Shown: positions 2,824 to 23,506, numbered from the stretch's first letter. The stretch: DNA of 51,727 nt from Candidatus Thalassarchaeum sp. (GCA_022449945.1 JAKURM010000004.1:1-51727); one strand, 5' to 3'. The notes: generated from the sequence alone by a model not told the origin. Program-made: numbers and translations.

Positions 2824-4686
2824 GTGTGCGGGATATCTGGGTTATTGGGAAGCGACTCCTCAGAAATGGCATCCAATATGGCTAGATGCATGCGTCACAG
2901 GGGGCCAGATGGTTTCGGGGGATTCTCCGAAGATATTGGCAGGGGAATAGTAGCCTTTGGGCATTCCAGACTTTCAATAGTTGACATGGGGGGCTCGGAA
3001 CAACCCCTCGTAAATCACTCTGGTTCTGCGTTGGTACATAATGGGGAAATATACAACTACGGTCAGATTAGAAAATCTATTTCCAATTATCAATGGTCTA
3101 CATCTGGTGATTCAGAGACAATATTAGCTCTACATTCAAACTCAATTTCCAGACCTTCCGAAGCCCCAGAATTTGCTACTGGTGTGGACGTTTCCGGAAT
3201 ACGGATTTCTCCGCAGGCCGCTTATCCTGGAAACCCTGCGGAGAAGCACTCCAAATGGGTATCTATGCTGGATGGGATTTGGGGATTCGCTCTTTGGGAT
3301 CCAGCTCTACGTGAACTAATCCTGTGCAGGGATTCAATGGGCGTGAAGCCACTCATACGCACCATACTTCCCAACGGTACTCTGCTATTTGCTTCCGAGA
3401 TGAAAGCATTTCATGCACATCCTGAGTTTGTCCCAATCCCTGACATCACGTCCCTTGCAGTTAGGTTGGCTTACGAGTATCCCCTAGACAGAACAACGCT
3501 ATTCGATGGAGTAATGCAAGTAGGACAAGGGACCATAGAAACATGGGGTATAGACGCCGAAGGAAGAGCCGTAATGACGGGAATTACTCGATATTCCTCT
3601 GAATCGATTAAACCTAATTCCAGCCTAGACTTCGAAAAACACTCAACTATTCTATTTGACACACTAAGTAAGAGTGTCAGAGATCGGATGATGTCAGATA
3701 CTCCCGTCGGCATTGTACTTTCTGGGGGGCTGGACTCTAGCCTAATTGCCGCCCTAGCAAAGGACTCCTCGGATGAATCCTCTCTGGAATCACCTGAATG
3801 CTGGACAGTTGCGGGTAGTGAGGACAATCCTGATCTAATTTCTTCTCAGAGAGTTACCGAAAGTCTTGACTTGCAACATAATGTTAGCATCCTTCATGAT
3901 GACATCTTCTGGAAGAAACTCCCTAGTTTTTCTTGGGATGGAGAAGATATGGACATCACAGTTCTTTTTTGGCAGCCACTATTTGAGGCAATGTCAACCT
4001 CAGTCAAGGTTGGATTGTGCGGACAGGGTGCAGACGAACTTCATGGGGGATATCAGAGATACGCCAATCTGCCACTGCACGCGAAGACTGTGGGCAATCG
4101 CCTGGATCTTGCAAGAGGCATTGACTTCTCAAGAATTGAATCCGGTATCGGGAAACCCTGGGAGGATTCGGGATTTTCACCTGATTCCGTGTTCTCTTCG
4201 GTCCAGTCGGCACTACAGTTCGAACTCGACAGAGGCCAACTAACCAACTTCCAACTTCGTCTTGCGGATAGGCACGGAATGGCATCGGGTTTGGAAGCTA
4301 GGGTTCCATTCTTGGGAAGGTCACATAGAGTTGCATCCCATAAAATGCCAATCGAATGGAGAGTCTCTAGTCCCGAGGAGAAGTTGGCACTAAGAAAGGC
4401 TGCAGAGCTGACAAACCTTCCCGATTCCATAGTTTACAGGCCTAAACTCCCCGCTGGAACAGCCACCGCCCCCAAGATGGTTGAGAGCCTAATTTCCGAA
4501 CTAGAGCCCCATGCACTTGAATGGTCAGCAGAGTATGGGATTTTGGAGCCATTACTTAGGAATCAGCCTGATATGGCGATAGGGATCCGATTATTCCACG
4601 CCACCCACTTTACAGAAGGAGGGATTGAACGCTCTTCAAAAGATTTGATGTCCGTCATCGATGATGTTGGGGACTGGCCCGGATAG
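2824..4686 (+). CDS. asnB: Asparagine synthetase B family glutamine-dependent amidotransferase
   Basis: GTG at 2824 gives the MCGI Ntn nucleophile; HRGPD, HSRLSIVD, HNGEIYN, SGGLDSS, GQGADELHGGY, EARVPFL. Confidence 0.9.
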   Translation: MCGISGLLGSDSSEMASNMARCMRHRGPDGFGGFSEDIGRGIVAFGHSRLSIVDMGGSEQPLVNHSGSALVHNGEIYNYGQIRKSISNYQWSTSGDSETILALHSNSISRPSEAPEFATGVDVSGIRISPQAAYPGNPAEKHSKWVSMLDGIWGFALWDPALRELILCRDSMGVKPLIRTILPNGTLLFASEMKAFHAHPEFVPIPDITSLAVRLAYEYPLDRTTLFDGVMQVGQGTIETWGIDAEGRAVMTGITRYSSESIKPNSSLDFEKHSTILFDTLSKSVRDRMMSDTPVGIVLSGGLDSSLIAALAKDSSDESSLESPECWTVAGSEDNPDLISSQRVTESLDLQHNVSILHDDIFWKKLPSFSWDGEDMDITVLFWQPLFEAMSTSVKVGLCGQGADELHGGYQRYANLPLHAKTVGNRLDLARGIDFSRIESGIGKPWEDSGFSPDSVFSSVQSALQFELDRGQLTNFQLRLADRHGMASGLEARVPFLGRSHRVASHKMPIEWRVSSPEEKLALRKAAELTNLPDSIVYRPKLPAGTATAPKMVESLISELEPHALEWSAEYGILEPLLRNQPDMAIGIRLFHATHFTEGGIERSSKDLMSVIDDVGDWPG

Positions 4687-4954
4687 ATCCTTCATTCGCC
4701 AACAGACGCATCTTTTCTGCGACTCCCCCCTTTCCACTATATCCGCCTATGGAGCCATCAGACTTCACGACTCTGTGACAGGGGACAATGATTGGATACG
4801 GGTTAGAAGAACAGGCATTTGCCACAGCCCGAGCAGATCTGGGATGGCCTATTTCCACTGCCACTTCTTTGTATGACCGAGTCTCCCCGGGGGGTATTTT
4901 CATCAGTTCCTTCCAGACCTTGTTCTGGAAATCAGTACCGTCCAAATTAACCAA
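4655..4954 (-). CDS. ogt: Methylated-DNA--protein-cysteine methyltransferase (C-terminal domain only)
   Basis: FQxKVW..IPPGETRSY..ARAVANA..NPYPIIVPCHRVV with the active-site Cys. Confidence 0.9.
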   Translation of the reverse strand: MVNLDGTDFQNKVWKELMKIPPGETRSYKEVAVEIGHPRSARAVANACSSNPYPIIVPCHRVVKSDGSIGGYSGKGGVAEKMRLLANEGSIRASPQHHR

Positions 4955-4969: not shown

Positions 4970-5260
4970 TTATTCCGCTTCGGCTTGATCGTCCGTCTCG
5001 AAACCACCATCGTCCATTCCAACGATTTCATAGTTCGAAGGAAAAAGTGCAATGACTATTCCTGCAACAATGCATCCAAGTCCTAATGCAAATGCCTGTT
5101 TAACAACCATCAATTCAAGACCAATTGCGAAGAGAATTAGTCCTCCCAAGTTAGAAACCCACACCAATGTCTTGAATGTTGATAGAGAAACCCCCTCGGA
5201 TCTCTTAGTCCTTCTTGGTCCAAACTCAGCACCGAATCTAAGTGGCCCCTTGTCCTCCAT
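4970..5260 (-). CDS. Small membrane protein (2 TM)
   Basis: Two hydrophobic helices and an acidic tail; 4 bp downstream of the ferredoxin gene. Confidence 0.7.
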   Translation of the reverse strand: MEDKGPLRFGAEFGPRRTKRSEGVSLSTFKTLVWVSNLGGLILFAIGLELMVVKQAFALGLGCIVAGIVIALFPSNYEIVGMDDGGFETDDQAEAE

Positions 5261-5264
5261 TCAA

Positions 5265-5597
5265 TCACCTATCAATCATCAGAATTGCATCTGTCGGACA
5301 GGCTAGGACACATAGCTTACAACCAGTACACGGGTCTCTGAGAATCCTAGCCTTTCTGTTGACATCTACACTCATAATTGGGCTTGCCAGAGGGGTGTCG
5401 TAGAGCTCAATAGCATCATCATCGCATACAATCGTACACTGGTCACACCCAATACACTGTTCTTCCTTAACCCATGCAACAGCATCATCTCCACCCTTCA
5501 AACTAGCCTCTTCTTCAGCCTTCATAGAATTAAGGAGCCTCCTAATTCTTGCCTGTTCTACGGCCCTCCTTTCCAATAGGTCCGGTATCTCAGTCAT
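5265..5597 (-). CDS. 2[4Fe-4S] ferredoxin with N-terminal helical extension
   Basis: CIGCDQCTIVC and CTGCKLCVLACP motifs. Confidence 0.9.
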   Translation of the reverse strand: MTEIPDLLERRAVEQARIRRLLNSMKAEEEASLKGGDDAVAWVKEEQCIGCDQCTIVCDDDAIELYDTPLASPIMSVDVNRKARILRDPCTGCKLCVLACPTDAILMIDR

Positions 5598-5664
5598 GCT
5601 CGTTCAACTACTGGCGAGATGCCCATCCTTAAGATAGTGATTCTGCAATAATAGCATTTGCGAA

Positions 5665-8481
5665 CTAAGTCGACTTCGACTCTTCGATCTGTCTAGCTAG
5701 GAAACTCACAACGTCTAAAATTTCGAAGTCATGCCTTGGGTCTCCTTCGAACTTCAGGCATTCGAAGTGTGCTACGCACTTGGGGCATGTTGTCAGCATC
5801 ACATCTGCACCCGTAGCATTCACCTCGTCAAATCTCTGCAACCTTAGAGCACGGCTATTTTCATTACACGACATCATGCTAGAAACGCCACAACAAAGGG
5901 CATCTTCACCCGTATGCTCCATTTCGACTAGCTCGACACCATCTACCGCCCTGACCAAGTCGCGCGGCTCTTCGTAGATATTCATCTGCCTACCGAGTCG
6001 GCAAGGGTCGTGATAAGTCACAGTAACATCATTCTCGGTTCGTAGACTCATGTCAAATCCATTCTCTACTAGGAATTCTGTGGTATGCATAACCTTCATG
6101 TCGTCAAGTTCGTAGTCCAAGGCAAAGGTGCGGAAGCACTCTGCACACGATGTCACCAGAGTGTCTATCCCACTCTGTCCGAGCTTCTTCTGGTTGTATG
6201 CCTTTAACTTTTCAAACACCTCAGTCATTCCTTGCCACTTCTGATCATGCCCGCAGCACTTCAGGAAGTCCCTTCCTAGATATGTAACGGACTCCCCCAT
6301 CTCCTCGAAAATCGTGAATGCCGCGTTTGTGGTCTCTCCGAGGTCCATCTCACCATGATTGACATGGCTGAATATCATCTCTTGATCGATGTAGTCTACG
6401 CATCCTGGGTAGTAGCCAACGCTAGAATCCAGGGGATAGTCTTCTACAGAGATGAACGACTCATCTGCGTCTTCTTCGGCTTCAGCAGCGAGAACTGCTT
6501 GTAATAATGTGTGCGGAATCTCAGCAGCGGGAGGCCCTCCGACAACCAGATTCCTCCTGATGTCGATGTATGAGTCATAGTCAACCAGCTGTGGACATGC
6601 GTTAGTGCATGCGGTGCATGTTAAGCACGAGTACAATGGGACACCGTCATCCTCATTGTTCCATGTATTGTATATGATGTTCAGCTTGTCTCCAGCATTG
6701 AATAGCCTGACTGGACAAGCATCGTCGCACAGGTCGCATCCATAGCACTTGTTCATCTCCCATTCGTAACCCCTTGCCATGCTTCTCATTAGCATGAACA
6801 CAATTGCACCGACTCCTAGGCAAGGAATAAACATCGAATAGATTAGCTTGGCATCCAGACTCTTTGGGTTTTTGTGGTAGGTCGGGTTTTCCAGTGCAAG
6901 GGAGGCTAATTCTGTTAATTCCCTTGTACTATCGGCTCTCGCCAAAGTAGTCCCTTCTTCGGATAGTAGGAGGGGCTGGTAAGCAACAACCGAGAAGTCG
7001 GAAATCATCATGACGCTATCGTTCACTTCGCTGGATTTGGTGACGAACGTAACTGTGTATGATTGAGCCGAATCTAAGTAGATGGTTGCAGACTGGCACG
7101 ATGTTCCACTATTTTCCCACACTAGCTGTCCAGCCTCATCCGTTAGCACCAGGCTTTGTGTGTGGAGTCCAGCATTCCTGACTGTAGTTCTGAAATTGCA
7201 CGAAATATCAGCAGGAACTTCGGAGAGTCCTAGGTCTTCGACCATGAATGTCCTAGACTCTATGATTTCAATATCGCTAGCATCCTCTGAGCCATTATAG
7301 ATTACGTCATCTGCACCAATATTCCTGGAGGTAGATATATCGCTATGCCCATTAACCCCACTGAAGTCAATGATCGTTGACCTAGTCGGTTGGAAAACCC
7401 CCCAATTCGACCAGTATATCGCAGGCATGACACACCATTCGTCGTAGGAGTCGCCTTCGTGGATATCCTCCCAAACTGATAGTTGGCCGGAACTCTCGTA
7501 TGGCAGGCACTTGTCACCCCACTCATCCCAGACATTTCCTTTGTCTACATGGACAAGAGTGTCTGATGGCTGTCCTCTGATGCCATCCAATTCAACCAGC
7601 TTCGCCTCGTTCTGATACTCCCAGAATCCCATTGTCCCGAGTCCTCTCTGATTCCAGAAGCCATTTTCGTAGACAGGCCATGTTATTGCACATAGCAGTA
7701 CGCTAGCGACCAGTGAACCTACCGCAATCTGCCTTCCAAGGATTGGGGTTAATCTAGAACCCATGGGTCCAAGGAGGAACTTTCTCACCGAGAAATACAA
7801 GAGTGCAAAAACGAAAATTCCCGTCAGAACCCATGGAACTGCATTGAATACCTCTGCTGTCCACGGAGACTGCGTGCCGCATCTGAAAACCCCATGCGAG
7901 GTCCCCCAACAGTAGTCTGTTCGATTTTGTCCATACATTTCTAGGAAGATGTTTATCGAGAAAACTGAGATGAACCAAACGTGAGCAAGATATACTGCCC
8001 CAGCAGTAGCAAACCACGGATCTTCGACCCCCCTCTTCTCCCTCTTCCCAATGATGAAGGGGGGTAGTGCCAAGATTCCTACTGGGAGGCCAGTAATTAG
8101 CGCACCCCATACTCCTGCATTCCACGAGACGATCGGTTGTCCAAAGAACTCGCCTATTGGGCCAGCAGGAATGTCGAACTGAGGTAGGTATTCCCCCCAT
8201 CGGAGGTATCCATAGGAGAACAAAACATACCAGTCTGGGAAAACGAAACCAGCCTGGGCATATGGGTCAGCCGCATTGTGCAAAGGTGGGGGGATTATCC
8301 AAGAGTAGAATGCAATAACCATCATTATCGATGCGAAAATTATGGTGTCACGAAGTACCTCTGTTGGCCAGAATGCATGTCCGGTGAAAACCCTCCTCCT
8401 CTCATCTTCCCCTTCTAGTAGGCCTTCCTTTTCACTGATGTAGGTGTCAGCTATCCTTCCGAATCTTTCTATCATCCCCAT
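5665..8481 (-). CDS. Cytochrome b6f subunit IV-like domain fused to an extracellular domain and an HdrD/GlpC-like Fe-S CCG oxidoreductase
   Basis: N-terminal FWPxEV..PPPL..ADP..PDWY (Qo motif); C-terminal CYGCDLCDDACP and CLTCTACTNACP, plus two CCG domains (YYPGC..CCG..CAEC; YHDPC..CCG..CPKC). Confidence 0.85.
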   Translation of the reverse strand: MGMIERFGRIADTYISEKEGLLEGEDERRRVFTGHAFWPTEVLRDTIIFASIMMVIAFYSWIIPPPLHNAADPYAQAGFVFPDWYVLFSYGYLRWGEYLPQFDIPAGPIGEFFGQPIVSWNAGVWGALITGLPVGILALPPFIIGKREKRGVEDPWFATAGAVYLAHVWFISVFSINIFLEMYGQNRTDYCWGTSHGVFRCGTQSPWTAEVFNAVPWVLTGIFVFALLYFSVRKFLLGPMGSRLTPILGRQIAVGSLVASVLLCAITWPVYENGFWNQRGLGTMGFWEYQNEAKLVELDGIRGQPSDTLVHVDKGNVWDEWGDKCLPYESSGQLSVWEDIHEGDSYDEWCVMPAIYWSNWGVFQPTRSTIIDFSGVNGHSDISTSRNIGADDVIYNGSEDASDIEIIESRTFMVEDLGLSEVPADISCNFRTTVRNAGLHTQSLVLTDEAGQLVWENSGTSCQSATIYLDSAQSYTVTFVTKSSEVNDSVMMISDFSVVAYQPLLLSEEGTTLARADSTRELTELASLALENPTYHKNPKSLDAKLIYSMFIPCLGVGAIVFMLMRSMARGYEWEMNKCYGCDLCDDACPVRLFNAGDKLNIIYNTWNNEDDGVPLYSCLTCTACTNACPQLVDYDSYIDIRRNLVVGGPPAAEIPHTLLQAVLAAEAEEDADESFISVEDYPLDSSVGYYPGCVDYIDQEMIFSHVNHGEMDLGETTNAAFTIFEEMGESVTYLGRDFLKCCGHDQKWQGMTEVFEKLKAYNQKKLGQSGIDTLVTSCAECFRTFALDYELDDMKVMHTTEFLVENGFDMSLRTENDVTVTYHDPCRLGRQMNIYEEPRDLVRAVDGVELVEMEHTGEDALCCGVSSMMSCNENSRALRLQRFDEVNATGADVMLTTCPKCVAHFECLKFEGDPRHDFEILDVVSFLARQIEESKST

Positions 8482-8490
8482 GTAAACACC

Positions 8491-9363
8491 TCAATGTGGC
8501 TCCGCAATTCCTTGTACCCAAACGATGAAGAGGTGGGCCAGAATAAGGGCCGTTACTATCACCGGTAGAACGAATACATGCAAGAAGTACATCCTAACCA
8601 CAGTCTGTCCCGTGAGAACGGTATCCCCAAAAAGTGCGTTAGCCATCCATTCCCCTATCAAGGGCGTGGCATTAGCCATGTTTATTCCAATCGTGGCCGC
8701 GCCAAACGCCAGACTATCCCATGGAAGTAGATAACCGGAGTAACCGAAAAAGATGGTGAAGAACATCAAAGCCACTCCAATTAGCCAGTTTAGCTCCCTG
8801 GGGTTCCTGTAAGCACCAGTGAAGTAAACCCTGCACATGTGTAGGAATACAGCTGCTACCATGAAGTGAGTAGTCCAGTGGTGAATTGAACGGATTATGT
8901 ATCCGAATGGTAACTCTAGCATAATGAATTCCATTGATGCGTATGCAGGAGTCGGGTCAGAGCTTAGGTCTCCCCCTGGGACATAGTAGAAGCCAAGAAT
9001 CGTCCCAGAAATTACCAGGATAATGAATGCTAGGAATGAGATCCCACCTAAGCAGTACAATGGATACCAATACCAAATAATCCTTAGTTTATACTTCTCA
9101 GCATGAGTTAGTGGCATTTGCCTGTGCATACTGTGGTAAGAATCCCGGCTCATGCCCCAATAGTCCTGGATCCGAAATCTAGTATCAAGCCAAGAGAATG
9201 CCCATAGGAAGGCCTTCTCTGCCAATCCCATACTTCCTGCGTTAGTTTCAACTGCCCTGAGGATATCTTTTCTCGGAATGTCATCCCTCTCCCTCCTTAG
9301 GGTGAATGCAACGATAACCACGACAATTGCTATGAAAATCCAAAGGAACCAGAACTGAATCAT
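8491..9363 (-). CDS. Cytochrome b6-like (split cytochrome b, N-terminal part)
   Basis: YCLGGI, IRSIHHW..FLHMCRV, PRELNW, GYLLPWD, FLHVFVLP..AHL; four heme-ligating His. Confidence 0.93.
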   Translation of the reverse strand: MIQFWFLWIFIAIVVVIVAFTLRRERDDIPRKDILRAVETNAGSMGLAEKAFLWAFSWLDTRFRIQDYWGMSRDSYHSMHRQMPLTHAEKYKLRIIWYWYPLYCLGGISFLAFIILVISGTILGFYYVPGGDLSSDPTPAYASMEFIMLELPFGYIIRSIHHWTTHFMVAAVFLHMCRVYFTGAYRNPRELNWLIGVALMFFTIFFGYSGYLLPWDSLAFGAATIGINMANATPLIGEWMANALFGDTVLTGQTVVRMYFLHVFVLPVIVTALILAHLFIVWVQGIAEPH

Positions 9364-9372
9364 ATTTTTTAC

Positions 9373-10227
9373 CTACCCACAGAATGTGTACCAATCCTTG
9401 AAATCTGGGAGAGCCTCGATTGCATCGCCATTTACAATGAAGGGAATTAGTGGCATGCCATATGGGGCGGGCCCACCTGTCTTTTTTATTCCAATGAAGT
9501 CGAAGTCTTGTCCATTAGACCTGTTCCGAGCAGTGTTCTTCTCAATTACGGTAGGGTCATATCTACTGGAGTGACAGATACAGAAGAGCTTGTTTCCGCC
9601 CGAGTCAGTTCCACCCGGAAGCCAATTGTCTGCAGTGAAGTCATTGTTCACCAACTGCCATCCAGGTATACAACATAGATGCGGGCACCTGGAGAAAATG
9701 ATGATCATGTTGTCGTGAATTGAAAGCGAGGCAAACTCCTCTTTCTCTTCAATTTCATAACCAGAGCCTACGTATGCTCCGCTGGCCGTAACTCCATCCA
9801 TAAGTTGGAATCTCGGCTCGTTCTCACTCAGGGGCCTGTTCGTATTTTCTTCATGTGGTACGTAGACCGCGACAACAGGTAGTCCGGACCAAAGCCCTGC
9901 AGCAGCGGACATTCCCGTGGACGAATCGGCTGCTTCATCTCTGAATGCCTGCATGGTCATCGGTTGCTTATCCATATTCCCATACCATACTTCAGATCCC
10001 TTGGGTGCGTAGAAGAGTATAGCCTGATCCGAACCTCCCGAACTAGCCTGACCCATTAAAAATGAGGCAAAACCTACACTGCCTAGACTTGCCATGGTAA
10101 TCAGGCCGGCTGCCGTATTGAACGACATCCGCATGAATTCTCTTCGATCAACGAATCCTACGCCCTCTTTTGCCGAATCCTCATTTTCATGCAAAGGCCG
10201 TAGTTTGAATCTCCTAGCCATCATCAC
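9373..10227 (-). CDS. Rieske 2Fe-2S protein of a Rieske/cytochrome b complex
   Basis: Tat motif DRREFM followed by a TM helix; CPHLCC and CICHSSRYD boxes; GGPAP. Confidence 0.92.
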   Translation of the reverse strand: MMMARRFKLRPLHENEDSAKEGVGFVDRREFMRMSFNTAAGLITMASLGSVGFASFLMGQASSGGSDQAILFYAPKGSEVWYGNMDKQPMTMQAFRDEAADSSTGMSAAAGLWSGLPVVAVYVPHEENTNRPLSENEPRFQLMDGVTASGAYVGSGYEIEEKEEFASLSIHDNMIIIFSRCPHLCCIPGWQLVNNDFTADNWLPGGTDSGGNKLFCICHSSRYDPTVIEKNTARNRSNGQDFDFIGIKKTGGPAPYGMPLIPFIVNGDAIEALPDFKDWYTFCG

Positions 10228-10673
10228 ACCTCATATTTCTTCCATGCTTCTGGATCATTCCTTGTGATGTACTTGTTTCGCCTATGCTTTACTATGATTA
10301 CATCTGGTAAGACATACTTTAGGTACACGATTCCCATGATAATTAGGGTTAGAAGGGTCATTGCTAGGTTGAATGATAGTAGCTGCTGATCCCAGTGTTT
10401 GAATAGTCCATATGAAAGAGAGCCCGCCCAGAAAAGAGTCCAAAGAATTCCCCATAGTCCAACTAGTACGATCAACCAAGAGTCTCCTGACGGCGAAACG
10501 CTCGCTCTAACAATTGTTCCAGGCTTTGGTGAGTTGAATACACCATGATCAACTGCGGCCGAGTAAGACTCTTCAGAAATAGTGACATCTTCAAGTGCCT
10601 TGCGTGCGTCTTCCACGCTTACTTCTCCTGACTCGACTTGTCGGAGTAGGCGCATTACCACGTCGTCCTTCAT
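10224..10673 (-). CDS. Hypothetical membrane protein (2 TM) in the Rieske/cyt b operon
   Basis: 4-bp overlaps with both neighbours; short N-terminal helical hairpin plus two TM helices. Confidence 0.75.
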   Translation of the reverse strand: MKDDVVMRLLRQVESGEVSVEDARKALEDVTISEESYSAAVDHGVFNSPKPGTIVRASVSPSGDSWLIVLVGLWGILWTLFWAGSLSYGLFKHWDQQLLSFNLAMTLLTLIIMGIVYLKYVLPDVIIVKHRRNKYITRNDPEAWKKYEV

Positions 10674-11494
10674 AGTTGATCTCCCCTTCTAAGATGCTTT
10701 ATTCTCAGTTTTAGTAGATTACTCCGGCCAACATAATGTCTCGAGAATCCGTACCTGAGAAACAATCCACAGAAGATGATAACAAGCATTACTGCTGCGA
10801 ATCCTAGTAATCCTAGCCAGTGAGCTAGGAGCTCAGCACCCATGTGATGGAGATCTGTGTGCTCTTCCACTGGGGCAGGAGGGTTAATTTCACCATTGCC
10901 GGAGAATATCGTTCTGACCTTGCCGTTATCCGTCCCCTCATCAACACTGGCGGTAAGCCTATTCCACCTGTCTAGGTTTGACGGAGCCATATCGCCATTG
11001 ACAGCATTTCCAGCAACCCAGACAGTCATTGAACCCGATGATTCTTCCGGAGCAGTCCATACAATACTCCACTTCCTGTCAGCCGTGCTGGATCCAGCAT
11101 TGGTGTGCGTTAGGGTGGCCAGGTCACCCTCCCAGTTTTGAACCAGCCCTTCAAAACCATCTCCAGGTGAAAGTTCACCAGAGCTGACTCTCATCGAGAA
11201 TCCCCCAGTGTATGAATCAGCAGATATCTCAGGTCCACCAATCAATTGGATAATTAATTCATATTGCCCCCCAGCCTCGAATTGGTAGGGAAATCCATCT
11301 AAGATCACTGTAACTGAGTTATCCGGACTTTCAGAATGGCACGTGCATCCCGCTAGCGATACATCTCCTTGGTTATTGGCATCGCCACCAACTCCAGTGT
11401 GCAGTGCTTCGCTCGATCCAGCAAATATTGCAATTACAACCAACGTTGCCAAGTACTTTCGATGGGAAATCATTGTCTGTTTCTCACCTTCCAC
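10670..11494 (-). CDS. Secreted Reeler-like beta-sandwich protein with CxCH motif and C-terminal membrane anchor
   Basis: Signal peptide, GCTCH, Reeler-type Y.L.I..GGF..LTH..W..WTAP..GNAVNGD pattern, C-terminal TM helix. The true start may be a few codons downstream. Confidence 0.7.
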   Translation of the reverse strand: MEGEKQTMISHRKYLATLVVIAIFAGSSEALHTGVGGDANNQGDVSLAGCTCHSESPDNSVTVILDGFPYQFEAGGQYELIIQLIGGPEISADSYTGGFSMRVSSGELSPGDGFEGLVQNWEGDLATLTHTNAGSSTADRKWSIVWTAPEESSGSMTVWVAGNAVNGDMAPSNLDRWNRLTASVDEGTDNGKVRTIFSGNGEINPPAPVEEHTDLHHMGAELLAHWLGLLGFAAVMLVIIFCGLFLRYGFSRHYVGRSNLLKLRIKHLRRGDQL

Positions 11495-11956: not shown

Positions 11957-12862
11957 ATGGAAGAAGGAGCCATTGTCATCGTTGGTGTCGGTGGTATAGG
12001 GTGCGCTTGGTCCCAAAGAGCCCACTCACTCTGCCAGGACCTTGCTGAATTATTATTGGTCGATGCGGACGAATCTTCTTTTTCTTCCGATCATGAAGCC
12101 AATTGTCTGCATCTTGATGCAGCCGGCGATGCAAGGGGGGCAGCCGCCCTACCAAATCTCGCTGAACATAGGTTGAAAGAAGGGATGGGCAACATTCAGC
12201 ACTTCCTTGAGAGATCAGAATTGGTCATCATTCTCTCTGCCCTTGGCGGTGGAACGGGTTCGGGTGCCACCTCTGAGATTGCTGCAAGAGCCAGAGAATC
12301 TGGTAGCCTGGTTTTGAGCATCGTCGGACTGCCCTTTGCCGAACAACCTCTAAGGTGCGCAATTGCCGACGTGGCCCTTCCTGAAATCGAGCGGAACTCT
12401 CACCTTTGCATTAGGGTGAGCCTTGAGAGGCTTGCATGGCAGGCGAGATACCGAAACTCAGACTGGAAGATGGGTTCGGAGTGGATAGGCGAACTTATCG
12501 AGGGTTTGGTTACTACATTAGCCCGAGTAGGAAAGATAAATCTTGATCTGATGGATTTGAGAACAGTTATCGATCGACCTGGTAATGCCACTCTACTAGT
12601 TGGCACGGGTTCGACTGAGAACCCATCAGAAGTTGTTCGCATGGCCCGAGAGTCACCCATGTCTGAGATCGGTGTCGATGGAGCAAAGGGTTGCTTGATA
12701 CAGGTTGAGGGCGGTCCTGACATGACTTTGGCACACCTGGATGCAGTTTCAGAAGGTTTTGTCTCTGCACTGGACAGTGACTGCCAGGTAATTCTTGGAG
12801 CCCGGTCAAGTGACGATATGGCCGGAAGCCTAAGACTCGTAGCCGTAGTCAGTGGCCTCTAG
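11957..12862 (+). CDS. Divergent FtsZ/tubulin family protein
   Basis: VGVGGIG, GGGTGSG tubulin signature, INLDLMDL T7-like loop, GGPDMTL..ILGAR..VVSGL C-terminal domain. Confidence 0.85.
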   Translation: MEEGAIVIVGVGGIGCAWSQRAHSLCQDLAELLLVDADESSFSSDHEANCLHLDAAGDARGAAALPNLAEHRLKEGMGNIQHFLERSELVIILSALGGGTGSGATSEIAARARESGSLVLSIVGLPFAEQPLRCAIADVALPEIERNSHLCIRVSLERLAWQARYRNSDWKMGSEWIGELIEGLVTTLARVGKINLDLMDLRTVIDRPGNATLLVGTGSTENPSEVVRMARESPMSEIGVDGAKGCLIQVEGGPDMTLAHLDAVSEGFVSALDSDCQVILGARSSDDMAGSLRLVAVVSGL

Positions 12863-14118
12863 TCGATAAGCTCAATCGTATCTTCATCGGGTACTGTTTC
12901 CATCTCTAAACTAATTTCATTATTCTGTGGAACAATTTCCGAGATAGCTGCTTCCTCCATCATTCCATTGCTTCCGTCCGAACCAAATGTTTCAAAATCT
13001 TTAGTCGCATTTACTCTAATTCGAAATACTGCAATTGGTGTGATTCCAACAATTACTAATGCCGTCAGAATGTGACCGAATGCTGTGGTAGTCAATAGGC
13101 TTCCTTTCGAAAGAGCGGACAGAGAAGAAATGCTTCCTGCGTACACATATCCAAAACTAATCCCCCAGAAAACTGCAGACTGCCCCTGGAAAATCTTTAC
13201 GCCTTTCTTACTGTTCTTGTTTGCCATAGACCAGACGGCCAATAGGATTGTAATTGCCATTAGCAATCCTTCCTCAACAATCATTGATGGCGTAACTTCG
13301 TTAGAAAAAAAAGGCATCCTTCTCCATGCACTGAAAACGTGCCAACATGCGGTCAGAGAAAGAAGAAATGCGACCCTATCGGCAATGACCCCGTCGATTT
13401 CAGTCGATTTCCTGGAGGTAGAAGTAATCCTGTCCACTATGCCCATAATTGAACCGATCAATATCAGAAATAGAGCCCATGCTAGATGTTCACTTGTACT
13501 GATATTTGCGTAATCTCCTGCGTCGTAGCCAAACCACCAAATAATCGGGCAGAACAAAACAAGGATAGCAACAATTCTCAGTGCCGAATAACCAAATCCA
13601 ATTCTGCTAGGCCTAATCTTCTTTGAAACTCTAGTGCCATAAGTAGACAATCCGATAGCCAATGTAATCGCTTGGAATATTGACATCAATACGAAAATCA
13701 TTCCAAGTGCAATTGCAATCCTCCCGAGCCATTCTTCTGCTTGAGAAATGGTCACAAATGAGACTATAGCAGAAATGCAAACAATTGGAAACAATGTTGC
13801 AGCACCCTTCTTCCAATACGATTTTCCAATTACCCCCCTGCTCTGGTGATCTACTCTTAGTAGGATGCCACCAATCTTTGATGGCGCGAAAATTGCAGCT
13901 ATGCAATATGACAGTGACAGCGAAAGAAAAATGACGGCACCCCTTTCTTGGATTCCAAATATGTCCACTTTCATCATTACGTAGAGCAGCCCGGTAATTA
14001 TCATCATTGCAAGGAAATGCGGCAGAGTTGAGGGGCTGGCGAATGACTTGAGAAGCCCTGTAACAGACCGTTCATTGCCCCCAATTCCCCCTTCCATGCC
14101 TTCTGGGGGACCCACCAT
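12859..14118 (-). CDS. Hypothetical polytopic membrane protein
   Basis: 419 aa, about 10-11 hydrophobic segments, acidic tail. Confidence 0.75.
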   Translation of the reverse strand: MVGPPEGMEGGIGGNERSVTGLLKSFASPSTLPHFLAMMIITGLLYVMMKVDIFGIQERGAVIFLSLSLSYCIAAIFAPSKIGGILLRVDHQSRGVIGKSYWKKGAATLFPIVCISAIVSFVTISQAEEWLGRIAIALGMIFVLMSIFQAITLAIGLSTYGTRVSKKIRPSRIGFGYSALRIVAILVLFCPIIWWFGYDAGDYANISTSEHLAWALFLILIGSIMGIVDRITSTSRKSTEIDGVIADRVAFLLSLTACWHVFSAWRRMPFFSNEVTPSMIVEEGLLMAITILLAVWSMANKNSKKGVKIFQGQSAVFWGISFGYVYAGSISSLSALSKGSLLTTTAFGHILTALVIVGITPIAVFRIRVNATKDFETFGSDGSNGMMEEAAISEIVPQNNEISLEMETVPDEDTIELID

Positions 14119-16092: not shown

Positions 16093-16680
16093 ATGGCCGT
16101 AAAAAGCTCCACTAAGAAGAGACTTGTCGAACTAGGAATCGCGGAAGAGCACGCACACAGATTGGCCGACGACGCCAATCTAGATGCAATCAAGAGGATG
16201 TCAAGGGAACAGGTTGCAAAGAAAGTTGGAATCGAGGATAGCGATTCGGCTCTTGATCAAATAATGGGTGTAATCAGTGAACATGTAGGTTCCCGTAAGA
16301 GGACTAAGAGTAACCGAATTACCATTTCCCGCAAGGCCCTTCTCGAGGAAGATATTCCCAGGGGGGATTTCAGGTTCAATGTACTCAATCATTTCCTTGT
16401 CCCTCATCACGAACTGGTTCCAATCGAATCGGAGGAAACTGAGTTAGCGCCATGGGGGCTAAAGACTTCCGACGTTCACGGAAACAACCGGCTGGCGAAG
16501 GAGCTTCTTCCAAAAATACTGATCACCGATCCTGCAATTCAGGCCATAAAAGAAATGGAGGAGTTGGAAAACGACGAGCTCCCGGCGGGTTGGCTGACGA
16601 ACCGAGTCGTCAGAATCCGAAGGTATAGTAGATCGGCCGGCAGCTCGGTTGCATTTCGCTTGATTGTAGAGAGCGCATGA
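16093..16680 (+). CDS. rpoH: RNA polymerase subunit H (Rpo5) with N-terminal extension
   Basis: HFLVPHHE..LPKILITDPA..VVRIRRYSRSAG..FRLIV; ATG at 16093 after GGAGG; first gene of the rpo operon. Confidence 0.9.
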   Translation: MAVKSSTKKRLVELGIAEEHAHRLADDANLDAIKRMSREQVAKKVGIEDSDSALDQIMGVISEHVGSRKRTKSNRITISRKALLEEDIPRGDFRFNVLNHFLVPHHELVPIESEETELAPWGLKTSDVHGNNRLAKELLPKILITDPAIQAIKEMEELENDELPAGWLTNRVVRIRRYSRSAGSSVAFRLIVESA

Positions 16681-19600
16681 TTAGGGGTGAAAAAGTGAAG
16701 GAGATAGTTGAGAGTTATTTCAAGCAAAGAAGTCTGGTTAATCACCAGTTGGCGTCATACAACGATTGCATTCCCATTGGAGATGGGAAGGAAAGCCGAA
16801 TGGAGTCCATTGTCAGGAATATCAAGATTGGGAGCGATGAGCATTTTGATGATGACGAGGGTGGCTTGGTTAAACTCGATCTTCTCGACAAGGAGATTGT
16901 TGTAAGGCTGAAGAATTTGAGATTAGGGCGCCCCACGATAAAGGAGGCCAATGGGGCTGAGCATCCCGCTACTCCCCTAGAGTGCCGAATCCGAAAACTT
17001 ACTTATTTTTCTCCAGTATACCTCGACTTCAAGATTTATCGTGACGATTTACCTCCCTCTCCAGGCGCAGAACTTGGTTACCTCGAGGAGAAGGGAGTCC
17101 ATATTGGCAACTTGCCGATAATGGTACGCTCTGCTAGGTGCAACCTTCATGCCGGACATATCGATGAGAATCGGAGACTCTCCCCCGAGTCCTCGGATGA
17201 AGACGCTGAGCGCTACCAGAAGCTCCTTAGAAAATCCGGTGAAGATCCACTAGATCCGGGTGGATATTTCATCATCAATGGCACCGAAAGAGTCCTAATC
17301 TCGATGGAAGATCTGGCTCCGAACCGAGTAACAGTTGAGAAGAACAAGAAATATGCACATGAGACGCAGGTCGCAAAAATCTTCTCCCAGAAAGATGGAG
17401 TTCGGAAGCCCCTGAACGTCGAGAAGAGAAGGGACGGGATGTTAATGGTCAAGATTCCCAGTGCCGGAACCACACCAGTTCCATTGGTGTTACTCATGCG
17501 AGCATTGGGTGTTGAGAACGACAGGGAGATTTTCGCTTCAATTGCAGGTCCACCCGAGGCAATGAAATACACTGTTGCCAACCTAAATGATCTAAGGGAC
17601 AACGACGAATATGGGGTCGATACGTGCGATGAAGCCCTTGGTTGGCTTGAGAAGAAATTCGCCGCCGGCCAGCAGAAGGAATACCGTGAGTCACGGATCC
17701 AGAACCTGCTAGATAACGAACTCCTTCCTCATTTGGGTTCTACCTTCGAAAATAGAGAGAAGAAGGCCATTTTCTTGGGAAGAATCGCACGGCAAGTTCT
17801 GGAAATGGCAATTAAGGACAAGGATCCCAATGACAAGGATCACTATGCCAATAAGCGAGTAAGACTAGCAGGAGACCTGGTAGAGGATCTGTTCCGTGTC
17901 AGCTTACAGCAACTTGCCCGGGATCTAAAATATCAGTTGGAAAGGCATCACAACCGAAAGAGGGAGCTTCGAATATCCTCCTGCCTTAGGCCAGACGTGC
18001 TTACCACCAAAATCATGCATGCCCTTGCGACAGGAAACTGGGTGGGTGGTAGATCGGGTGTTAGCCAGCTGCTGGATCGTACTACATACCTGTCTGCACT
18101 ATCCCATCTGAGGCGAGTTACCAGTCCTCTAGTTCGGAGCCAACCACACTTCGAGGCTAGGGATCTCCACCCAACGCAATGGGGTCGACTTTGTCCAAAT
18201 GAGACGCCGGAAGGACAGAATTGCGGCCTTGTAAAGAACGGTGCCCAGATGATAGACATTTCTGAAGAAGTTCCCGAAGCAGACGTCAAAGATTTGCTAA
18301 AGGAGGCTGGAGTTAATGACAATCCAGATGGTTGGGCGGATGGCTCAAGGATTCACGTTAATGGGGATATATTCGGACTACACAAGAGGCCACACAAACT
18401 AGTGAGCCAATTCAAGAGAAGAAGACGCTCGGGAAGGATAAGGCCAGAAGTCAGCATAGGTAATGACTTGGAGAACAGTGATGTCTTCATCAATTCTGAT
18501 CGCGGTAGTATGCTACGTCCCCTGCTAATCATAGAACACGGCAGCCTTCAGATAACAAAGATGCATTTGGAGGGACTGAGGTCCGGTGAAATTTCATTTT
18601 CCGACTTAGTCTCAGGTGGAGTAATTGAATGGGTCGATGCCGAAGAAGAGGAAGATCTTCTGATTGCACCCAGGCCGTTTGACCTGCCGGCAGAGTCACC
18701 TAGGAATAAGAGGCCGATTAACCCATCCAAGGTTCAGTGGACAAACCTTGGAGAAATGGGCAAGGACTCTGACGGAAAGCCCGTACCACTATCTTACGCG
18801 CAATTGATTGCCGAGGTACAGATGCCCAATGGAGAGACGAAGAACGAGAAGTTCAGAGTCCCGCTGAACTACTACCAAGAGAATATTGATGCCCTAAAAA
18901 GGAAAGAAAAGAAAGGCAACACTGTACTAGTATACACCCATGTGGAGATTGACCCCCAACTAATTCTCGGAGTCTGTGCTTCTCTGGTTCCATACCCGGA
19001 ACACAATTCCACTCCGCGTGTAACCGGTGGAACTGCCATGGTAAAGCAAAGCCTTGGGGTGGCCAGTGCGAACTTTCGCCTTAGACCCGATACCAGAGCC
19101 CACGTGATGCACTACCCACAGAGGTCAATTGTTGGCACTCGTGCTATGCAGTCCACGAACTTCGACCAAAGGCCAGGCGGGCAAAATTACGTTGTCGCCA
19201 TAGTTAGCCATCACGGTTACAATATGCAGGACGCCGTAATTATGAATCGCTCTTCGGTGGAGAGGGCCCTAGGAAGGTCAGCATTCGTTCGTACATACAA
19301 TGCCGAGAATAAGAGATTCCCAGGAGGGCAGGAAGAGAGGATTGAGATCCCAGGAACCGGATTAGATGAGATCAAGGGACTCAAGTCATGGGATTCATAC
19401 TCGCACCTAGAGAGGGACGGCCTACCCGTTCCAGAGGAGGAACTGACCAGCGAAGAGGGAGGCCGATCAATTCTTGTTGGCAAGACCAGCCCTCCAAGAT
19501 TCCTCGAGGAGGCTCATGGGGCGTTTTTGCAAGCGCAAGAGAGACGAGAGTCATCCATGCTTGTTAGGCATGGGGAGAAGGGCTGGGTAGACAATGTATA

Positions 19601-23400: not shown

Positions 23401-23506
23401 CCAGTTCGAGTACGGCGAGGATGGCATTGATCCTGCAAGGAGCCGTAAGGGAAGCCCATTCGATGTCAACCAAGTCCTGAACGATGCGCTTGGAGGTGGT
23501 AAGTGA
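20411..23506 (+). CDS. rpoA1: RNA polymerase subunit A' (Rpo1N)
   Basis: [11 protein letters not shown] catalytic motif, [30 protein letters not shown]. Confidence 0.98.

Follow-up and report, generated by a model that had tools for sequence, protein, structure and literature searches.

The complex III locus of marine group II archaea encodes a b6-type Rieske/cytochrome b core with an HdrD-type iron-sulfur module fused to subunit IV

In HdrDE and DsrMK, electrons pass from quinol through haem b to an HdrD-type subunit, and the CCG motifs of HdrB and HdrD carry 5 + 5 cysteines. For the b6f complex, input of stromal or cytoplasmic ferredoxin at haem ci is a long-debated idea. The CCG clusters of EMO and EtfD can relay electrons via haem b to quinone (bioRxiv 10.64898/2026.08.18.745454; PMC13083937), and the relay-type cluster of EtfD has four Cys ligands (PMC13083937). 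Cytochromes b of the bc family with a cytoplasmic Fe-S/flavin module have also been described. In anammox clade G, the modules are subunits of their own, NAD(P)-binding Fe-S proteins (PMC5600118), and the 'PDWF-FeS' fusions carry 4Fe-4S and MvhD or flavin domains in a cluster without a Rieske gene (PMC4122944). In Ca. Angelarchaeales, Diamond et al. (2022) reported a complex III with adjoining 'unusual' hdrD-like and rnfB-like genes and suggested that it may be an entry point of reduced ferredoxin (PMC9038741). What is said here of the cited papers applies to the accessible parts of their text.

The window, by which we mean the whole 51,727-nucleotide stretch of Candidatus Thalassarchaeum sp. 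DNA that was analyzed (GCA_022449945.1 JAKURM010000004.1:1-51727), carries seven co-oriented genes, g1 to g7, on the minus strand at positions 4970-11494. All of the ORFs are present at the coordinates given in Table 1, with intergenic gaps, in order from g1 to g7, of -4, -4, 9, 9, 67, and 4 bp. Homologues bear the source labels Poseidoniales/Thalassarchaeaceae. The cluster encodes the marine group II complex III, with the core of a b6-type Rieske/cytochrome b menaquinol oxidase. A preliminary description had read it as a b6-type Rieske/cytochrome b complex with an HdrD-type Fe-S module on subunit IV, and motifs and profiles agree with that anatomy. Its statement that the cluster holds no CxxCH cytochrome c1/f gene was borne out as well, since a motif scan of the seven proteins detected CXXCH in none of them.

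Table 1. Genes of the cluster and parts of g5, with their positions in the window
Feature	Coordinates	Strand	Length (aa)	Description
g1	10670..11494	-	274	Exported Reeler-fold GCxCH protein, C-terminal TM anchor
g2	10224..10673	-	149	2 TM helices; DUF7318-like
g3	9373..10227	-	284	Tat signal, one TM anchor, Rieske [2Fe-2S]
g4	8491..9363	-	290	Cytochrome b6 with haem-ci cysteine
g5	5665..8481	-	938	Subunit IV (PDWY) fused to HdrD-type module
g5 residues ~1-233	7783..8481	-		Subunit IV / cytochrome b C-terminal half; PDWY, helices E, F, G and next helix
g5 residues ~234-566	6784..7782	-		Order-specific insertion
g5 residues ~567-938	5665..6783	-		Cytoplasmic HdrD-type module: two cubane [4Fe-4S] motifs and two CCG domains
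g6	5265..5597	-	110	RnfB-like 2x[4Fe-4S] ferredoxin, conserved N-terminal helix
g7	4970..5260	-	96	Small membrane protein

The g4 protein matched PF00033 (3.7e-41), and its closest solved relatives are b6 subunits of b6f complexes (6rqf_I, 8.9e-42). It has an extra N-terminal TM helix, and the haem-ligand pairs for bL and bH, His161/175 and His262/277, show b6-like spacing. Its LYCLGG sequence aligned with FYCLGG of spinach b6 and contains, as Cys104, the CxGG cysteine for a covalent haem ci/cn (see PMC5600118 for the significance of the motif). A b6 ORF with YCxGG was detected in most of the related loci scanned (L011-L015, L017, L035, L038, L057, and L070); in that scan none was flagged in L016 or L037, the latter showing a g4-like match only.

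The N-terminal part of g5 provides a subunit IV separate from b6, with a Qo motif of the PxWY type. This motif, PDWY at residues 82-85, is the one seen in menaquinone users (PMC4122944). Compared by itself with subunit IV structures, the g5 N terminus gave a faint match (E 0.44), and its assignment therefore comes from homologues and from profile A1. PF00032 scored over the cut-off in g5 homologues (28.8 bits in L012, 22.5 in L011, 48.7 in P0122, and 44.4 in P0123), and profile A1 matched, among solved structures, residues 248-431 of QcrB (E 2.5e-9) and subunit IV of b6f (E 9.8e-6). From these sequence features, the core is predicted to carry haems bL and bH and a covalent haem ci, with PDWY as a low-potential Qo motif.

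Upstream of g4, g3 contains an RREFM Tat motif, a TM helix at residues 40-58, and the sequences CPHLCC (181-186) and CICHSS (216-221), which together supply the Tat export, the CxH...CxxH boxes, and the disulfide cysteines of a Rieske protein. Its family matches are all sub-threshold (TIGR01416, 5.8e-9, 36.2 bits for a cut-off of 97.4; solved Rieske proteins, E 0.31 at best), and the identification therefore relies on motifs and context; a Rieske-box ORF occupies the equivalent position in every related locus scanned. The g2 protein, with TM helices at 67-85 and 98-116, is encoded with 4-bp overlaps with both g1 and g3 and is probably a small accessory subunit. It matched PF24002 (DUF7318) weakly (1.4e-5, 25.5 bits, under the cut-off of 27), and its homologue in L012 scored over that cut-off (47.3 bits).

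The g1 protein was assigned to the NCBIfam choice-of-anchor V domain (choice_anch_V, 1.3e-23), has a TM helix at 227-245, and carries the sequence CTCH at residues 50-53. G49, C50, C52, and H53 are invariant in 30 sequences. A Foldseek search with its structure model (pLDDT 76.8) retrieved the reeler domain of F-spondin (3coo_B, E 2.2e-6, TMt 0.59) and, as a weak match, cytochrome f (1e2v_A, E 2.5e-4), which points to a Reeler-type beta-sandwich fold. Its Atlas cluster is named 'putative Reelin domain-containing protein', and Pfam PF02014 gave nothing against g1 at E <= 0.01. Across 61 genomes of the order, PF00034 was found in none and PF13442 scored over its cut-off in none, and no PF00127 cupredoxin was detected in the genome of the window. 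Thus, no c-type cytochrome, be it f or c1, and no other high-potential acceptor subunit was found, g1 being a candidate only: lying in the usual place of cytochrome f/c1, it may be a p-side redox or accessory subunit.

In g5, the subunit IV part is followed by an insertion made up of a TM helix (247-265), an extracytoplasmic beta-sandwich domain of ~280 residues (266-545), and a return helix (546-564). Its model (pLDDT 82.1) gave generic GOLD/jelly-roll matches only (E 4.9e-5, TMt 0.60), and no cofactor motif was seen in it. The insertion is missing from the short forms of the fusion (alignment A2).

The C-terminal part has the organization of HdrD, in which two ferredoxin motifs precede two CX(n)CCGX(n)CXXC motifs. 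It matched Fer4 and, in two CCG stretches, PF02754 (1.2e-23). The cubane motifs, CX2CX2CX3CP, start at 579 and 619; the CCG motifs, C694/CC742-743/C779xxC782 and C827/CC863-864/C899xxC902, are both complete, with ten cysteines (5 + 5). The module cysteines are invariant in alignments A2 and A5 except for one position: L012 and L014 have V in place of the second C of the first CC pair. Among solved structures, mycobacterial EtfD (9ojn_A, 2e-21) is closest to the module, in the soluble part only, and the best NCBIfam match of the module is TfrB (2.4e-33, under the cut-off). Its closest unfused relatives, soluble HdrD-like proteins with 41-43% identity, sit in Hdr-like clusters of Methanosarcinales, Methanoperedens, and Methanocomedens MAGs, which argues for an Hdr ancestry rather than a pure wire. 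Nevertheless, g5 was not filed as a heterodisulfide reductase, because its anchor is subunit IV and no HdrE-type anchor is present. In the short forms, ~10 residues separate the last helix from the first [4Fe-4S] cysteine (alignment A2); in EtfD, the equivalent cubane cluster lies ~7 Å from haem b (PMC13083937). The natural reading is that electrons can move between the module and the n-side haems, and we consider such exchange probable.

Downstream of g5, the g6 protein contains two CX2CX2CX3C motifs (Fer4_21, 6.3e-13). It was rejected as the RnfB of a true Rnf complex: its match to TIGR01944 rnfB (8e-13, 48.4 bits) is under the family cut-off of 68.7, and RnfACDEG are reported to be lacking in these archaea in the accessible text of Tully 2019 (PMC6336850). 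The label 'RnfB-like' thus says little about its partner. In the predicted complex of g6 with g5 566-938, ipSAE was 0.83 in three runs, and the best of 3 controls gave 0.01. That mark was reached by 58/80 solved complexes and 2/110 mismatched pairs, a calibration that holds only roughly here because the prediction used alignments of our own making. The runs share at least 80% of contacts, with a partner pLDDT of at least 79. The model supports docking of g6 on the CCG domains of g5: helix 1-29 of g6 is predicted to lie on g5 692-738, and g6 47-53, with the cluster ligands Cys48 and Cys51, near g5 872-878 and 908-912. The predicted packing of the Fe-S module may be a recall of solved Hdr-type structures. 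For g7, which has a hydrophobic stretch at 35-76, Pfam-type and NCBIfam searches found no family; the gene is always paired with g6, in either orientation.

Conservation of the cluster is far above chance expectation. The g5 fusion is full length and free of stop codons in 200/201 genomes of the order, in all 61 high-quality genomes, and in 24/24 genera, a distribution indicating that it is real and under selection. Among loci with enough flanking sequence, g1-g5 are colinear in 50/50 species loci, and g6 lies downstream of g5 in 52/52, at a distance of 3-2993 bp (median, 345 bp). The synteny that the preliminary description proposed as a check is therefore present. Its seven co-oriented genes hold for the window, and the g1-g5 order is fixed, but g6 and g7 are not bound to that orientation: g6 is on the same strand as g5 in 28 of the 52 loci and inverted, together with g7, in the other 24. 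Thus, the seven genes do not form one obligatory operon, and production of g6 and g7 in step with g1-g5 is not required. The RNA available consisted of short contigs from one sample, none of which spans two genes of the cluster.

Short fusions devoid of the insertion were found in L011-L014, L035, and L036, all from other Thermoplasmatota, and in L037, a MAG labelled Geothermarchaeales. All of these loci carry a Rieske-box ORF, all but L037 a flagged b6 ORF with YCxGG, and several have an RnfB-like ferredoxin nearby. In L015-L017, from the sister group in the same class, the 2x[4Fe-4S] part is fused to subunit IV and the CCG part is a separate gene, which argues that the cubane clusters are the link to the membrane. 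By source labels, fusion or adjacency is kept across at least two phyla, always with a Rieske protein and cytochrome b6. This distribution indicates that the arrangement predates the order.

We tentatively favor a menaquinol-oxidizing b6-type complex whose Fe-S chain brings electrons from ferredoxin to the n-side haems and Qi. With g6, the g5 module would provide as many as six Fe-S clusters in a chain leading from the cytoplasm to haems bH/ci and the Qi pocket. Reduced ferredoxin would be produced by 2-oxoacid:ferredoxin oxidoreductases and oxidized at g6, and its electrons would travel by way of the CCG and cubane clusters, reaching haem ci/bH and reducing menaquinone at Qi. In quinol oxidation at Qo, one electron would go to the Rieske protein and on towards a haem-copper oxidase, possibly via g1, and the second would return via the b haems. 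The complex would thereby combine a ferredoxin:quinone reductase with a quinol oxidase. Gene content (POR_N, 1.9e-44) indicates that the genome makes reduced ferredoxin; NuoF was not found in this 88%-complete MAG. We put forward the inward direction and ferredoxin as the donor with corresponding caution, the direction depending on our estimate of potentials. A bolder proposal, possible though doubtful, is that the six-cluster chain beside haem ci is a hard-wired ferredoxin entry and that g1 replaces cytochrome f as p-side acceptor, maybe with an unconventional covalent haem from an otherwise substrate-less Ccm system. If ferredoxin does enter in this way, some of the most abundant archaea in the ocean would have complex III itself as their ferredoxin:quinone reductase.

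The reverse direction has to be weighed against this ferredoxin entry; the preliminary description left the direction open and put its emphasis on bifurcation at Qo. Of the menaquinol electrons released there, one would go to the Rieske protein, and the other, of low potential, would cross bL, bH, and ci, enter the Fe-S chain, and reduce a cytoplasmic disulfide at the CCG site, or g6. Such a quinol-based bifurcation would drive a reduction in the cytoplasm instead of a plain Q cycle. The full set of ten CCG cysteines, the invariance of the second CCG motif and of the Fer4 cysteines, the Hdr-like surroundings of the nearest unfused relatives, and the Rieske protein kept in every locus are consistent with such a flow, as is, by analogy, the precedent of HdrDE and DsrMK; bifurcation of the Qo type would moreover give menaquinol added driving force for disulfide reduction. 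By our own estimate, however, the n-side electron would work against the membrane potential, at about -150 mV, which at best suits a high-potential disulfide and not ferredoxin, so that ferredoxin reduction by the Qo bifurcation route is unlikely. The predicted g6 dock also covers part of the CCG region and would fit an electron relay better than an open disulfide site, and the first CC pair reads CV in L012 and L014, as in the relay-type cluster of EtfD. We regard outward flow as unlikely. The complete CCG motifs are equally what a catalytic disulfide site would require. Such a site could also work inward, as a thiol:quinone oxidoreductase on complex III akin to TfrB or to sulfur-oxidizing Hdr-like systems, oxidizing a cytoplasmic thiol or persulfide pair (on a small thiol or a carrier protein) and sending the electrons to Qi. 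The flow would be downhill, and the complete CCG motifs and the match to TfrB agree with it; but the cluster and its flanks showed no gene for a thiol carrier, a lipoate-binding protein, or sulfur oxidation, and the conserved ferredoxin g6 would be left without a role, which makes thiol oxidation quite improbable.

The resemblance of the module to EtfD suggests instead an EMO/EtfD-like acceptor for ETF, by which beta-oxidation and amino-acid catabolism would feed Qi. The genome has an ACAD-EtfB-EtfA operon, PF05187 ETF-QO was not found in it, and these archaea are described as fatty acid and protein degraders (PMC6336850). Yet g5 was rejected as EMO/EtfD itself: it matches EtfD in the soluble part only, and the same genome encodes, at C46:1358-3439, a genuine full-length orthologue (1.6e-104 over membrane and soluble domains), to which g5 is 25% identical. 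With that orthologue elsewhere, the fused module probably does not serve as acceptor for ETF, and we consider this role very unlikely. Most genomes of the order give a second match to the module, whose identity was examined in the genome of the window (G000) alone. Finally, the module might not be wired to the haems. It would then act in redox sensing or in assembly, or be an independent enzyme for which subunit IV is a mere anchor. Fusion does serve as a membrane anchor for soluble enzymes; the association with Rieske and cytochrome b6 proteins across phyla, its persistence where the CCG part is split off, and the short helix-to-cluster linker all speak against it, and we give this last explanation hardly any weight.

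The preliminary description had presented the complex as a candidate for novelty. Rieske/cytochrome b complexes with cytoplasmic oxidoreductase subunits (PMC5600118) and hdrD/rnfB-like neighbours of complex III (PMC9038741) are published, as are Fe-S-fused cytochromes b (PMC4122944), and because of these precedents the cluster is less novel than first claimed. What stands is the fusion of subunit IV to an HdrD-type module; neither it nor its universality in marine group II was found in print. The Ca. Angelarchaeales locus, also from Thermoplasmatota, shares with the window a cytochrome b/Rieske complex III without cytochrome c, and there, as in the short-form loci L012, L014, and L035, a plastocyanin-like gene lies upstream of the Rieske gene (PMC9038741). 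The accessible text devotes one sentence to the proximal genes, in one genome, and mentions no fusion; its supplements may show more. In the window, the fusion belongs to another, very abundant order in which it is universal, has a ~330-aa insertion, and is accompanied by a Reeler-fold GCxCH protein at the cupredoxin's place. The idea of ferredoxin entry was reached independently for Ca. Angelarchaeales (PMC9038741).

With anammox clade G and the PDWF-FeS fusions, the locus shares a bc-family cytochrome b combined with a cytoplasmic Fe-S/flavin module; a CCG/HdrD module on subunit IV occurs in the window and, in the accessible text of PMC5600118 and PMC4122944, in neither of those systems. With HdrDE, DsrMK, and EMO/EtfD, it has in common a haem-b membrane protein whose cytoplasmic face bears two cubane and two CCG sites, and a cytoplasmic redox partner connected to the quinone pool. 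In those systems the anchor, a NarI-like or 5-TM haem-b domain, comes with neither Qo site nor Rieske protein, whereas here subunit IV from a Rieske/b6 complex is the anchor. The b6f complex and the Firmicutes menaquinol:cytochrome c reductases of the b6c type share with the window the split cytochrome b, the four-His b6 with its CxGG cysteine, the subunit IV with a PxWY Qo motif, and the Rieske subunit. In contrast to both, the archaeal complex is without cytochrome f, c1, or a fused cytochrome c, its b6 has the extra N-terminal helix, and its subunit IV continues into a cytoplasmic Fe-S module, so that, compared with b6f, an Fe-S chain is covalently attached on the haem ci side.

The minus strand between positions 4970 and 11494 carries seven open reading frames (g1 to g7) separated by -4, -4, 9, 9, 67 and 4 bp, in agreement with the preliminary description of seven co-oriented, mostly tightly spaced genes. 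Its statement that the cluster has no gene for a CxxCH cytochrome also held, CXXCH being found in none of the seven proteins. Pfam alone gave no match for g1, g3, g7 or the N terminus of g5. In the g4 product, four His residues show b6-like spacing, and the cysteine of an LYCLGG sequence corresponds in the alignment to the spinach b6 cysteine that binds haem ci. The genes around the cluster are of the housekeeping type (asparagine synthase, a 99-aa methylguanine-methyltransferase DNA-binding-domain protein, an FtsZ-family protein and RNA polymerase subunits), and the proximity of the RNA polymerase and FtsZ-family genes thus places it in a core chromosomal region. Two of its neighbors are conserved in position. 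The 99-aa ORF, 15 bp downstream of g7, keeps its place in all nine same-genus loci and in some same-order loci, and weak homologues (23-35% identity) of an upstream 419-aa protein occupy the same relative position in nine of nine diverse loci of the order.

Table. The seven genes of the cluster, their neighbors in the window, and related genes on other contigs (C1 to C102) of the same genome.
Feature	Location	Strand	Length	Characteristics
g1		minus	274 aa	Signal-like N terminus; CTCH at 50-53; C-terminal TM helix; NCBIfam choice-of-anchor V, 1.3e-23
g2		minus	149 aa	2 TM helices; DUF7318 match sub-threshold
g3		minus	284 aa	Twin-arginine RREFM; 1 TM helix; Rieske boxes CPHLCC and CICHSS; family models below cut-off only
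g4		minus	290 aa	Cytochrome b6; PF00033, 3.7e-41; best solved relatives, b6 of b6f, 8.9e-42
g5		minus	938 aa	PDWY at 82-85; six predicted TM helices; two CX2CX2CX3CP; two complete CCG motifs; PF02754, 1.2e-23
g6		minus	110 aa	2x[4Fe-4S] ferredoxin; best NCBIfam match rnfB, below cut-off
g7		minus	96 aa	Small, hydrophobic; no family match
99-aa ORF	window 4655-4954	minus	99 aa	Solely the DNA-binding domain of 6-O-methylguanine methyltransferase (PF01035, 1.4e-34)
FtsZ/tubulin-family protein	window 11957-12862	plus	301 aa	Short; just upstream of the cluster, opposite strand
419-aa protein	window 12859-14118	minus	419 aa	About 9 TM helices; no family match
RNA polymerase B, A', A''	window 16677-25086	plus
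g1 paralogue	C102:38454-39485 (L030:8455-9486)	minus		26% identity; choice-of-anchor V, 2.2e-19; GCSCH kept
EtfD/EMO orthologue	C46:1358-3439 (locus L029)	minus	694 aa	Full length; 9ojn_A, 1.6e-104
ACAD-EtfB-EtfA operon	C1:49568-52513
CcmF-like gene	C19:4715-7162		about 800 aa	Haem handling; found order-wide
CcmC-like gene	C1:35786-36514		about 245 aa	Haem handling; found order-wide

The N-terminal part of g5 on its own matched b6f subunit IV with an E value of 0.44 in a single-sequence search of solved structures, and we therefore used homologues and a profile. The PF00032 cut-off of 20.7 bits is exceeded by shorter homologues at loci L011 (22.5 bits) and L012 (28.8 bits) and by the homologous proteins P0122 (48.7 bits) and P0123 (44.4 bits). 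With a profile of 12 N-terminal regions (alignment A1), residues 248-431 of actinobacterial QcrB, its C-terminal half, were found at E 2.5e-9 and b6f subunit IV at E 9.8e-6, and the PDWY motif of the quinol oxidation (Qo) site is invariant among the aligned homologues. These sequence comparisons settle the assignment of the g5 N terminus as a subunit IV. According to the relevant part of Kao and Hunte, PDWY accompanies menaquinone and low-potential Rieske proteins (PMC4122944).

In alignment A2, fusions of the short form contain helices E, F, G and H, and a GGYxYELNxCxxC sequence starts about 10 residues past the last helix. An inside N terminus, such as subunit IV has, puts the Fe-S module in the cytoplasm. 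The g5 protein of the window follows the short-form plan with an insertion of about 330 residues between helices G and H (the long form), which adds two helices and an outside domain of 280 residues. This domain was modeled with confidence (pLDDT 82.1); fold searches matched generic beta sandwiches only, and we ascribe no function to it.

We recovered whole, stop-free g5 sequences from 200 of 201 genomes in the order Poseidoniales (marine group II), among them 61 of 61 high-quality genomes and all 24 genera, spread over three families; the sole genome without a match is 83% complete. Among 251 genomes sampled across the phylum, every listed full-length match falls inside the order, and the listed matches outside it start at query residue 535 or beyond. 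We then compared 79 loci from species-representative genomes, 63 of which carry the long form. In all 50 long-form loci whose upstream flank spans 3.4 kb or more, g1-g2-g3-g4 are colinear with g5 on the same strand. In the 52 whose downstream flank spans 3.5 kb or more, g6 always lies downstream of g5, at a distance of 3 to 2993 bp (median, 345 bp), on the same strand in 28 cases and inverted together with g7 in 24. Thus, g1-g5 form a fixed unit, and g6-g7 are a constant neighbor that is not always co-transcribed. The conservation of the cluster, which the preliminary description had proposed to check by synteny, is borne out for the fusion and for the g1-g5 order. A complete archaeal g1-g5 set followed by inverted g7-g6, with a 943-aa fusion, was also present in a record titled Salinimicrobium sp. 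MAG (L057), whose bacterial label is probably a binning or labeling error.

Co-expression in ocean metatranscriptomes had also been suggested as a check. In two runs from one sample of one study, most of the contigs on g1, g3, g4 and g5 were near-identical; they measure 150 to 250 nt, no contig spans two genes, and the lack of cover on g2, g6 and g7 proves nothing. These contigs establish presence in an RNA library only, being proof neither of transcription nor of an operon, and say nothing on co-transcription.

Outside the order, the module is arranged differently. In a sister lineage of the same class but of another family (loci L015 to L017; genomes G226, G399 and G387), g1, g2, the Rieske gene and b6 are followed by a gene in which subunit IV is fused to 2x[4Fe-4S] only, and the two CCG domains have a gene of their own, downstream and in another frame. 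The same split occurs in three genomes, and so it is not a sequencing frameshift. An RnfB-like ferredoxin gene follows the CCG gene in L015 and L017; L016 stops at a contig end. In other Thermoplasmatota (L011 to L014, L035 and L036) and in a MAG labeled Ca. Geothermarchaeales (L037), fusion proteins that are 569 to about 680 aa long join subunit IV directly to the full module. The Rieske gene and b6 adjoin these short-form fusions, with a DUF7318 gene and a ferredoxin gene nearby in several, and the reading frame upstream of b6 encodes a cupredoxin domain in L012, L014 and L035 but not in L011 and L013. Haloferax, too, has a b-type complex with DUF7318. A search of 1.84 billion cluster representatives with the short form gave 141 proteins at E <= 1e-30, just a handful of which matched end to end. 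Among ten proteins scanned, four combine PF00032, Fer4 and CCG, two have PF00032 and Fer4, two are Hdr-like without cytochrome b, and the other two showed no PF00032 but did show Fer4, in one form or the other with regard to CCG (present or absent).

At 41 to 43% identity, the nearest relatives of the module that are not fused are HdrD-like soluble proteins of 350 to 360 aa, from MAGs labeled Methanosarcinales, Methanocomedens and Methanoperedens (L045, L047, L048, L053, L071, L086 and L087). Three of the seven loci (L053, L086 and L087) continue with genes for HdrC-like (2x[4Fe-4S]) and HdrB-like (CCG) proteins and a large Fe-S ORF. This hints at recruitment of the module from an Hdr-like system.

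On the high-potential side, the position of g1 is that of the cupredoxin gene in the short-form loci that have one, and PF00127 cupredoxins were not found in the genome of the window. Alignment, model and fold search describe the g1 protein as a Reeler-type sandwich on a C-terminal anchor, with an invariant GCxCH and near-invariant Met101 and His130; it is a candidate acceptor on this side. A Foldseek match to cytochrome f was weak (E 2.5e-4, TMq 0.39) and could be explained by a generic sandwich plus helix; we keep g1 as an analogue of cytochrome f as a lead only. A g1 paralogue in the same genome adjoins a TatC gene and one for a transhydrogenase beta subunit. A search of this assembly found no COX1, but the gene occurs in 27 of 31 relatives and in all 10 of those of high quality. 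One relative (L117) has a cox operon of COX2, COX1, COX3, COX4 and SCO1, next to which lies neither a cupredoxin nor a cytochrome c gene.

Haem-handling genes of the Ccm type (PF01578) were present in 61 of 61 genomes from the order. The same genomes yielded no class-I cytochrome c domain (PF00034 in 0/61; PF13442 above cut-off in 0/61), and the 15 ORFs of at least 100 aa with CXXCH in the genome of the window include no obvious cytochrome c. The presence of Ccm genes alongside this result is a remaining puzzle. The Ccm genes do not discriminate between genomes with and without g1, being present in all 10 outside-order genomes checked, namely, seven of seven with the short form and no g1 and three of three with the split form and g1.

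We used complex prediction, with alignments for both chains, for the g6 ferredoxin, whose eight cluster cysteines are invariant and whose N-terminal helix is conserved. Three runs paired the g6 protein with residues 566-938 of g5 at an ipSAE of 0.83, and the best of three controls scored 0.01. Of 80 solved complexes, 58 attain this ipSAE mark, as do 2 of 110 mismatched pairs; the calibration holds just roughly for custom alignments, and the score could owe something to resemblance to solved Fe-S assemblies. The runs share at least 80% of their contacts, with a partner pLDDT of at least 79. In the predicted interface, the g6 helix lies on g5 residues 692-738 in the first CCG domain, and g6 residues 47-53, among them ligands of one cluster, are near g5 residues 872-878 and 908-912. 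The prediction supports binding of g6 to the module while falling short of showing it. If the docking is right, the centers would be ordered from the g6 clusters through the CCG and then the cubane clusters to the membrane haems.

What donates to this chain, or receives from it, can be read in several ways. The best solved relative of the module is mycobacterial EtfD (9ojn_A, 2e-21), an ETF:menaquinone oxidoreductase in which, in the part of the report relevant here, two CCG and two cubane clusters wire ETF to haem b and menaquinone, with about 7 A between the final cluster and the haem (PMC13083937). In a corresponding part of their report, the authors of the Syntrophus EMO structure likewise see the non-cubane clusters as a relay (bioRxiv 10.64898/2026.08.18.745454). 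With an ACAD-EtfB-EtfA operon in the genome and PF05187 (ETF-QO) not found there, we initially favored the g5 module as the acceptor of ETF. We downgraded this reading on account of the orthologue on contig C46, which matches 9ojn_A over both membrane and soluble domains and is probably the ETF:menaquinone oxidoreductase of this archaeon. This paralogue most likely serves ETF, and so ETF entry through g5 is a minor rival.

The same genome encodes the alpha subunit of a 2-oxoacid:ferredoxin oxidoreductase (POR_N, 1.9e-44), and NuoF was not found in its 88%-complete assembly; reduced ferredoxin would therefore be made and need a route to the respiratory chain. Electrons could pass from ferredoxin along the Fe-S chain to haem ci/bH and menaquinone, a path that would be steeply downhill. 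The preliminary description had allowed for this direction and for the opposite one, in which the low-potential electron of quinol bifurcation at Qo drives cytoplasmic reduction. By our own estimate, such an electron, having worked against the membrane potential, would arrive at the n-side with a potential of roughly -150 mV, borderline for reducing a disulfide and not low enough for ferredoxin. We therefore favor inward flow over outward bifurcation; we hold the former tentatively, at a little short of even confidence, and regard the latter as unlikely. A catalytic thiol/disulfide role of the CCG site is kept alive by the completeness of both CCG motifs in g5 and by the occurrence of unfused relatives in Hdr clusters. 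The anatomy given in the preliminary description and the conservation of the cluster are established, and the interpretation offered there is partly supported, its mechanism and direction being proposals.

Throughout a globally abundant archaeal order, the Rieske/b6 complex bears an HdrD-type module that is joined covalently to its subunit IV. Marine group II are among the most abundant surface-ocean archaea, and the cluster, present in 200 of the 201 genomes sampled, is their only recognizable complex III. If the chain feeds ferredoxin electrons to haem ci and the Qi site, it would suggest a route by which these electrons return to the respiratory chain in these aerobic archaea, and possibly in others relying on 2-oxoacid:ferredoxin oxidoreductases. 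Inward flow would also offer a tractable model of n-side electron input into b6-type complexes, and it would resemble the ancestral bc state proposed in part of PMC5600118, a small cytochrome b with a cytoplasmic oxidoreductase. Outward flow would represent quinol-based bifurcation driving cytoplasmic reduction.

Parts of this picture have appeared in genome papers. In its treatment of respiration, Tully 2019 reports cytochrome b and Rieske genes without a canonical bc1 in most marine group II genomes, as “MGII specific (complex III),” and classes RnfB as an orphan component of Rnf, with no link drawn there between the two (PMC6336850); the present reading joins these oddities. The words Rieske and cytochrome b are absent from the main text of its reference 9 (PMC4511931). 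We found no description of the subunit IV-HdrD fusion in the literature searched, to which the supplements of PMC6336850, PMC9038741 and PMC4511931 may add. The ferredoxin-entry function has already been hinted at once, for a related order. Diamond et al. 2022 note hdrD-like and rnfB-like genes by complex III in one Ca. Angelarchaeales genome and propose ferredoxin entry; this is the same idea, given in one sentence, and the passage makes no mention of a fusion to subunit IV (PMC9038741). The fusions covered by Kao and Hunte in the relevant section join cytochrome b to other Fe-S or flavin domains and, unlike the present complex, come without a Rieske protein (PMC4122944). The anammox complexes, as treated in part of Dibrova et al., have cytoplasmic oxidoreductase subunits, and the ancestral scenario presented there is of a like kind (PMC5600118).
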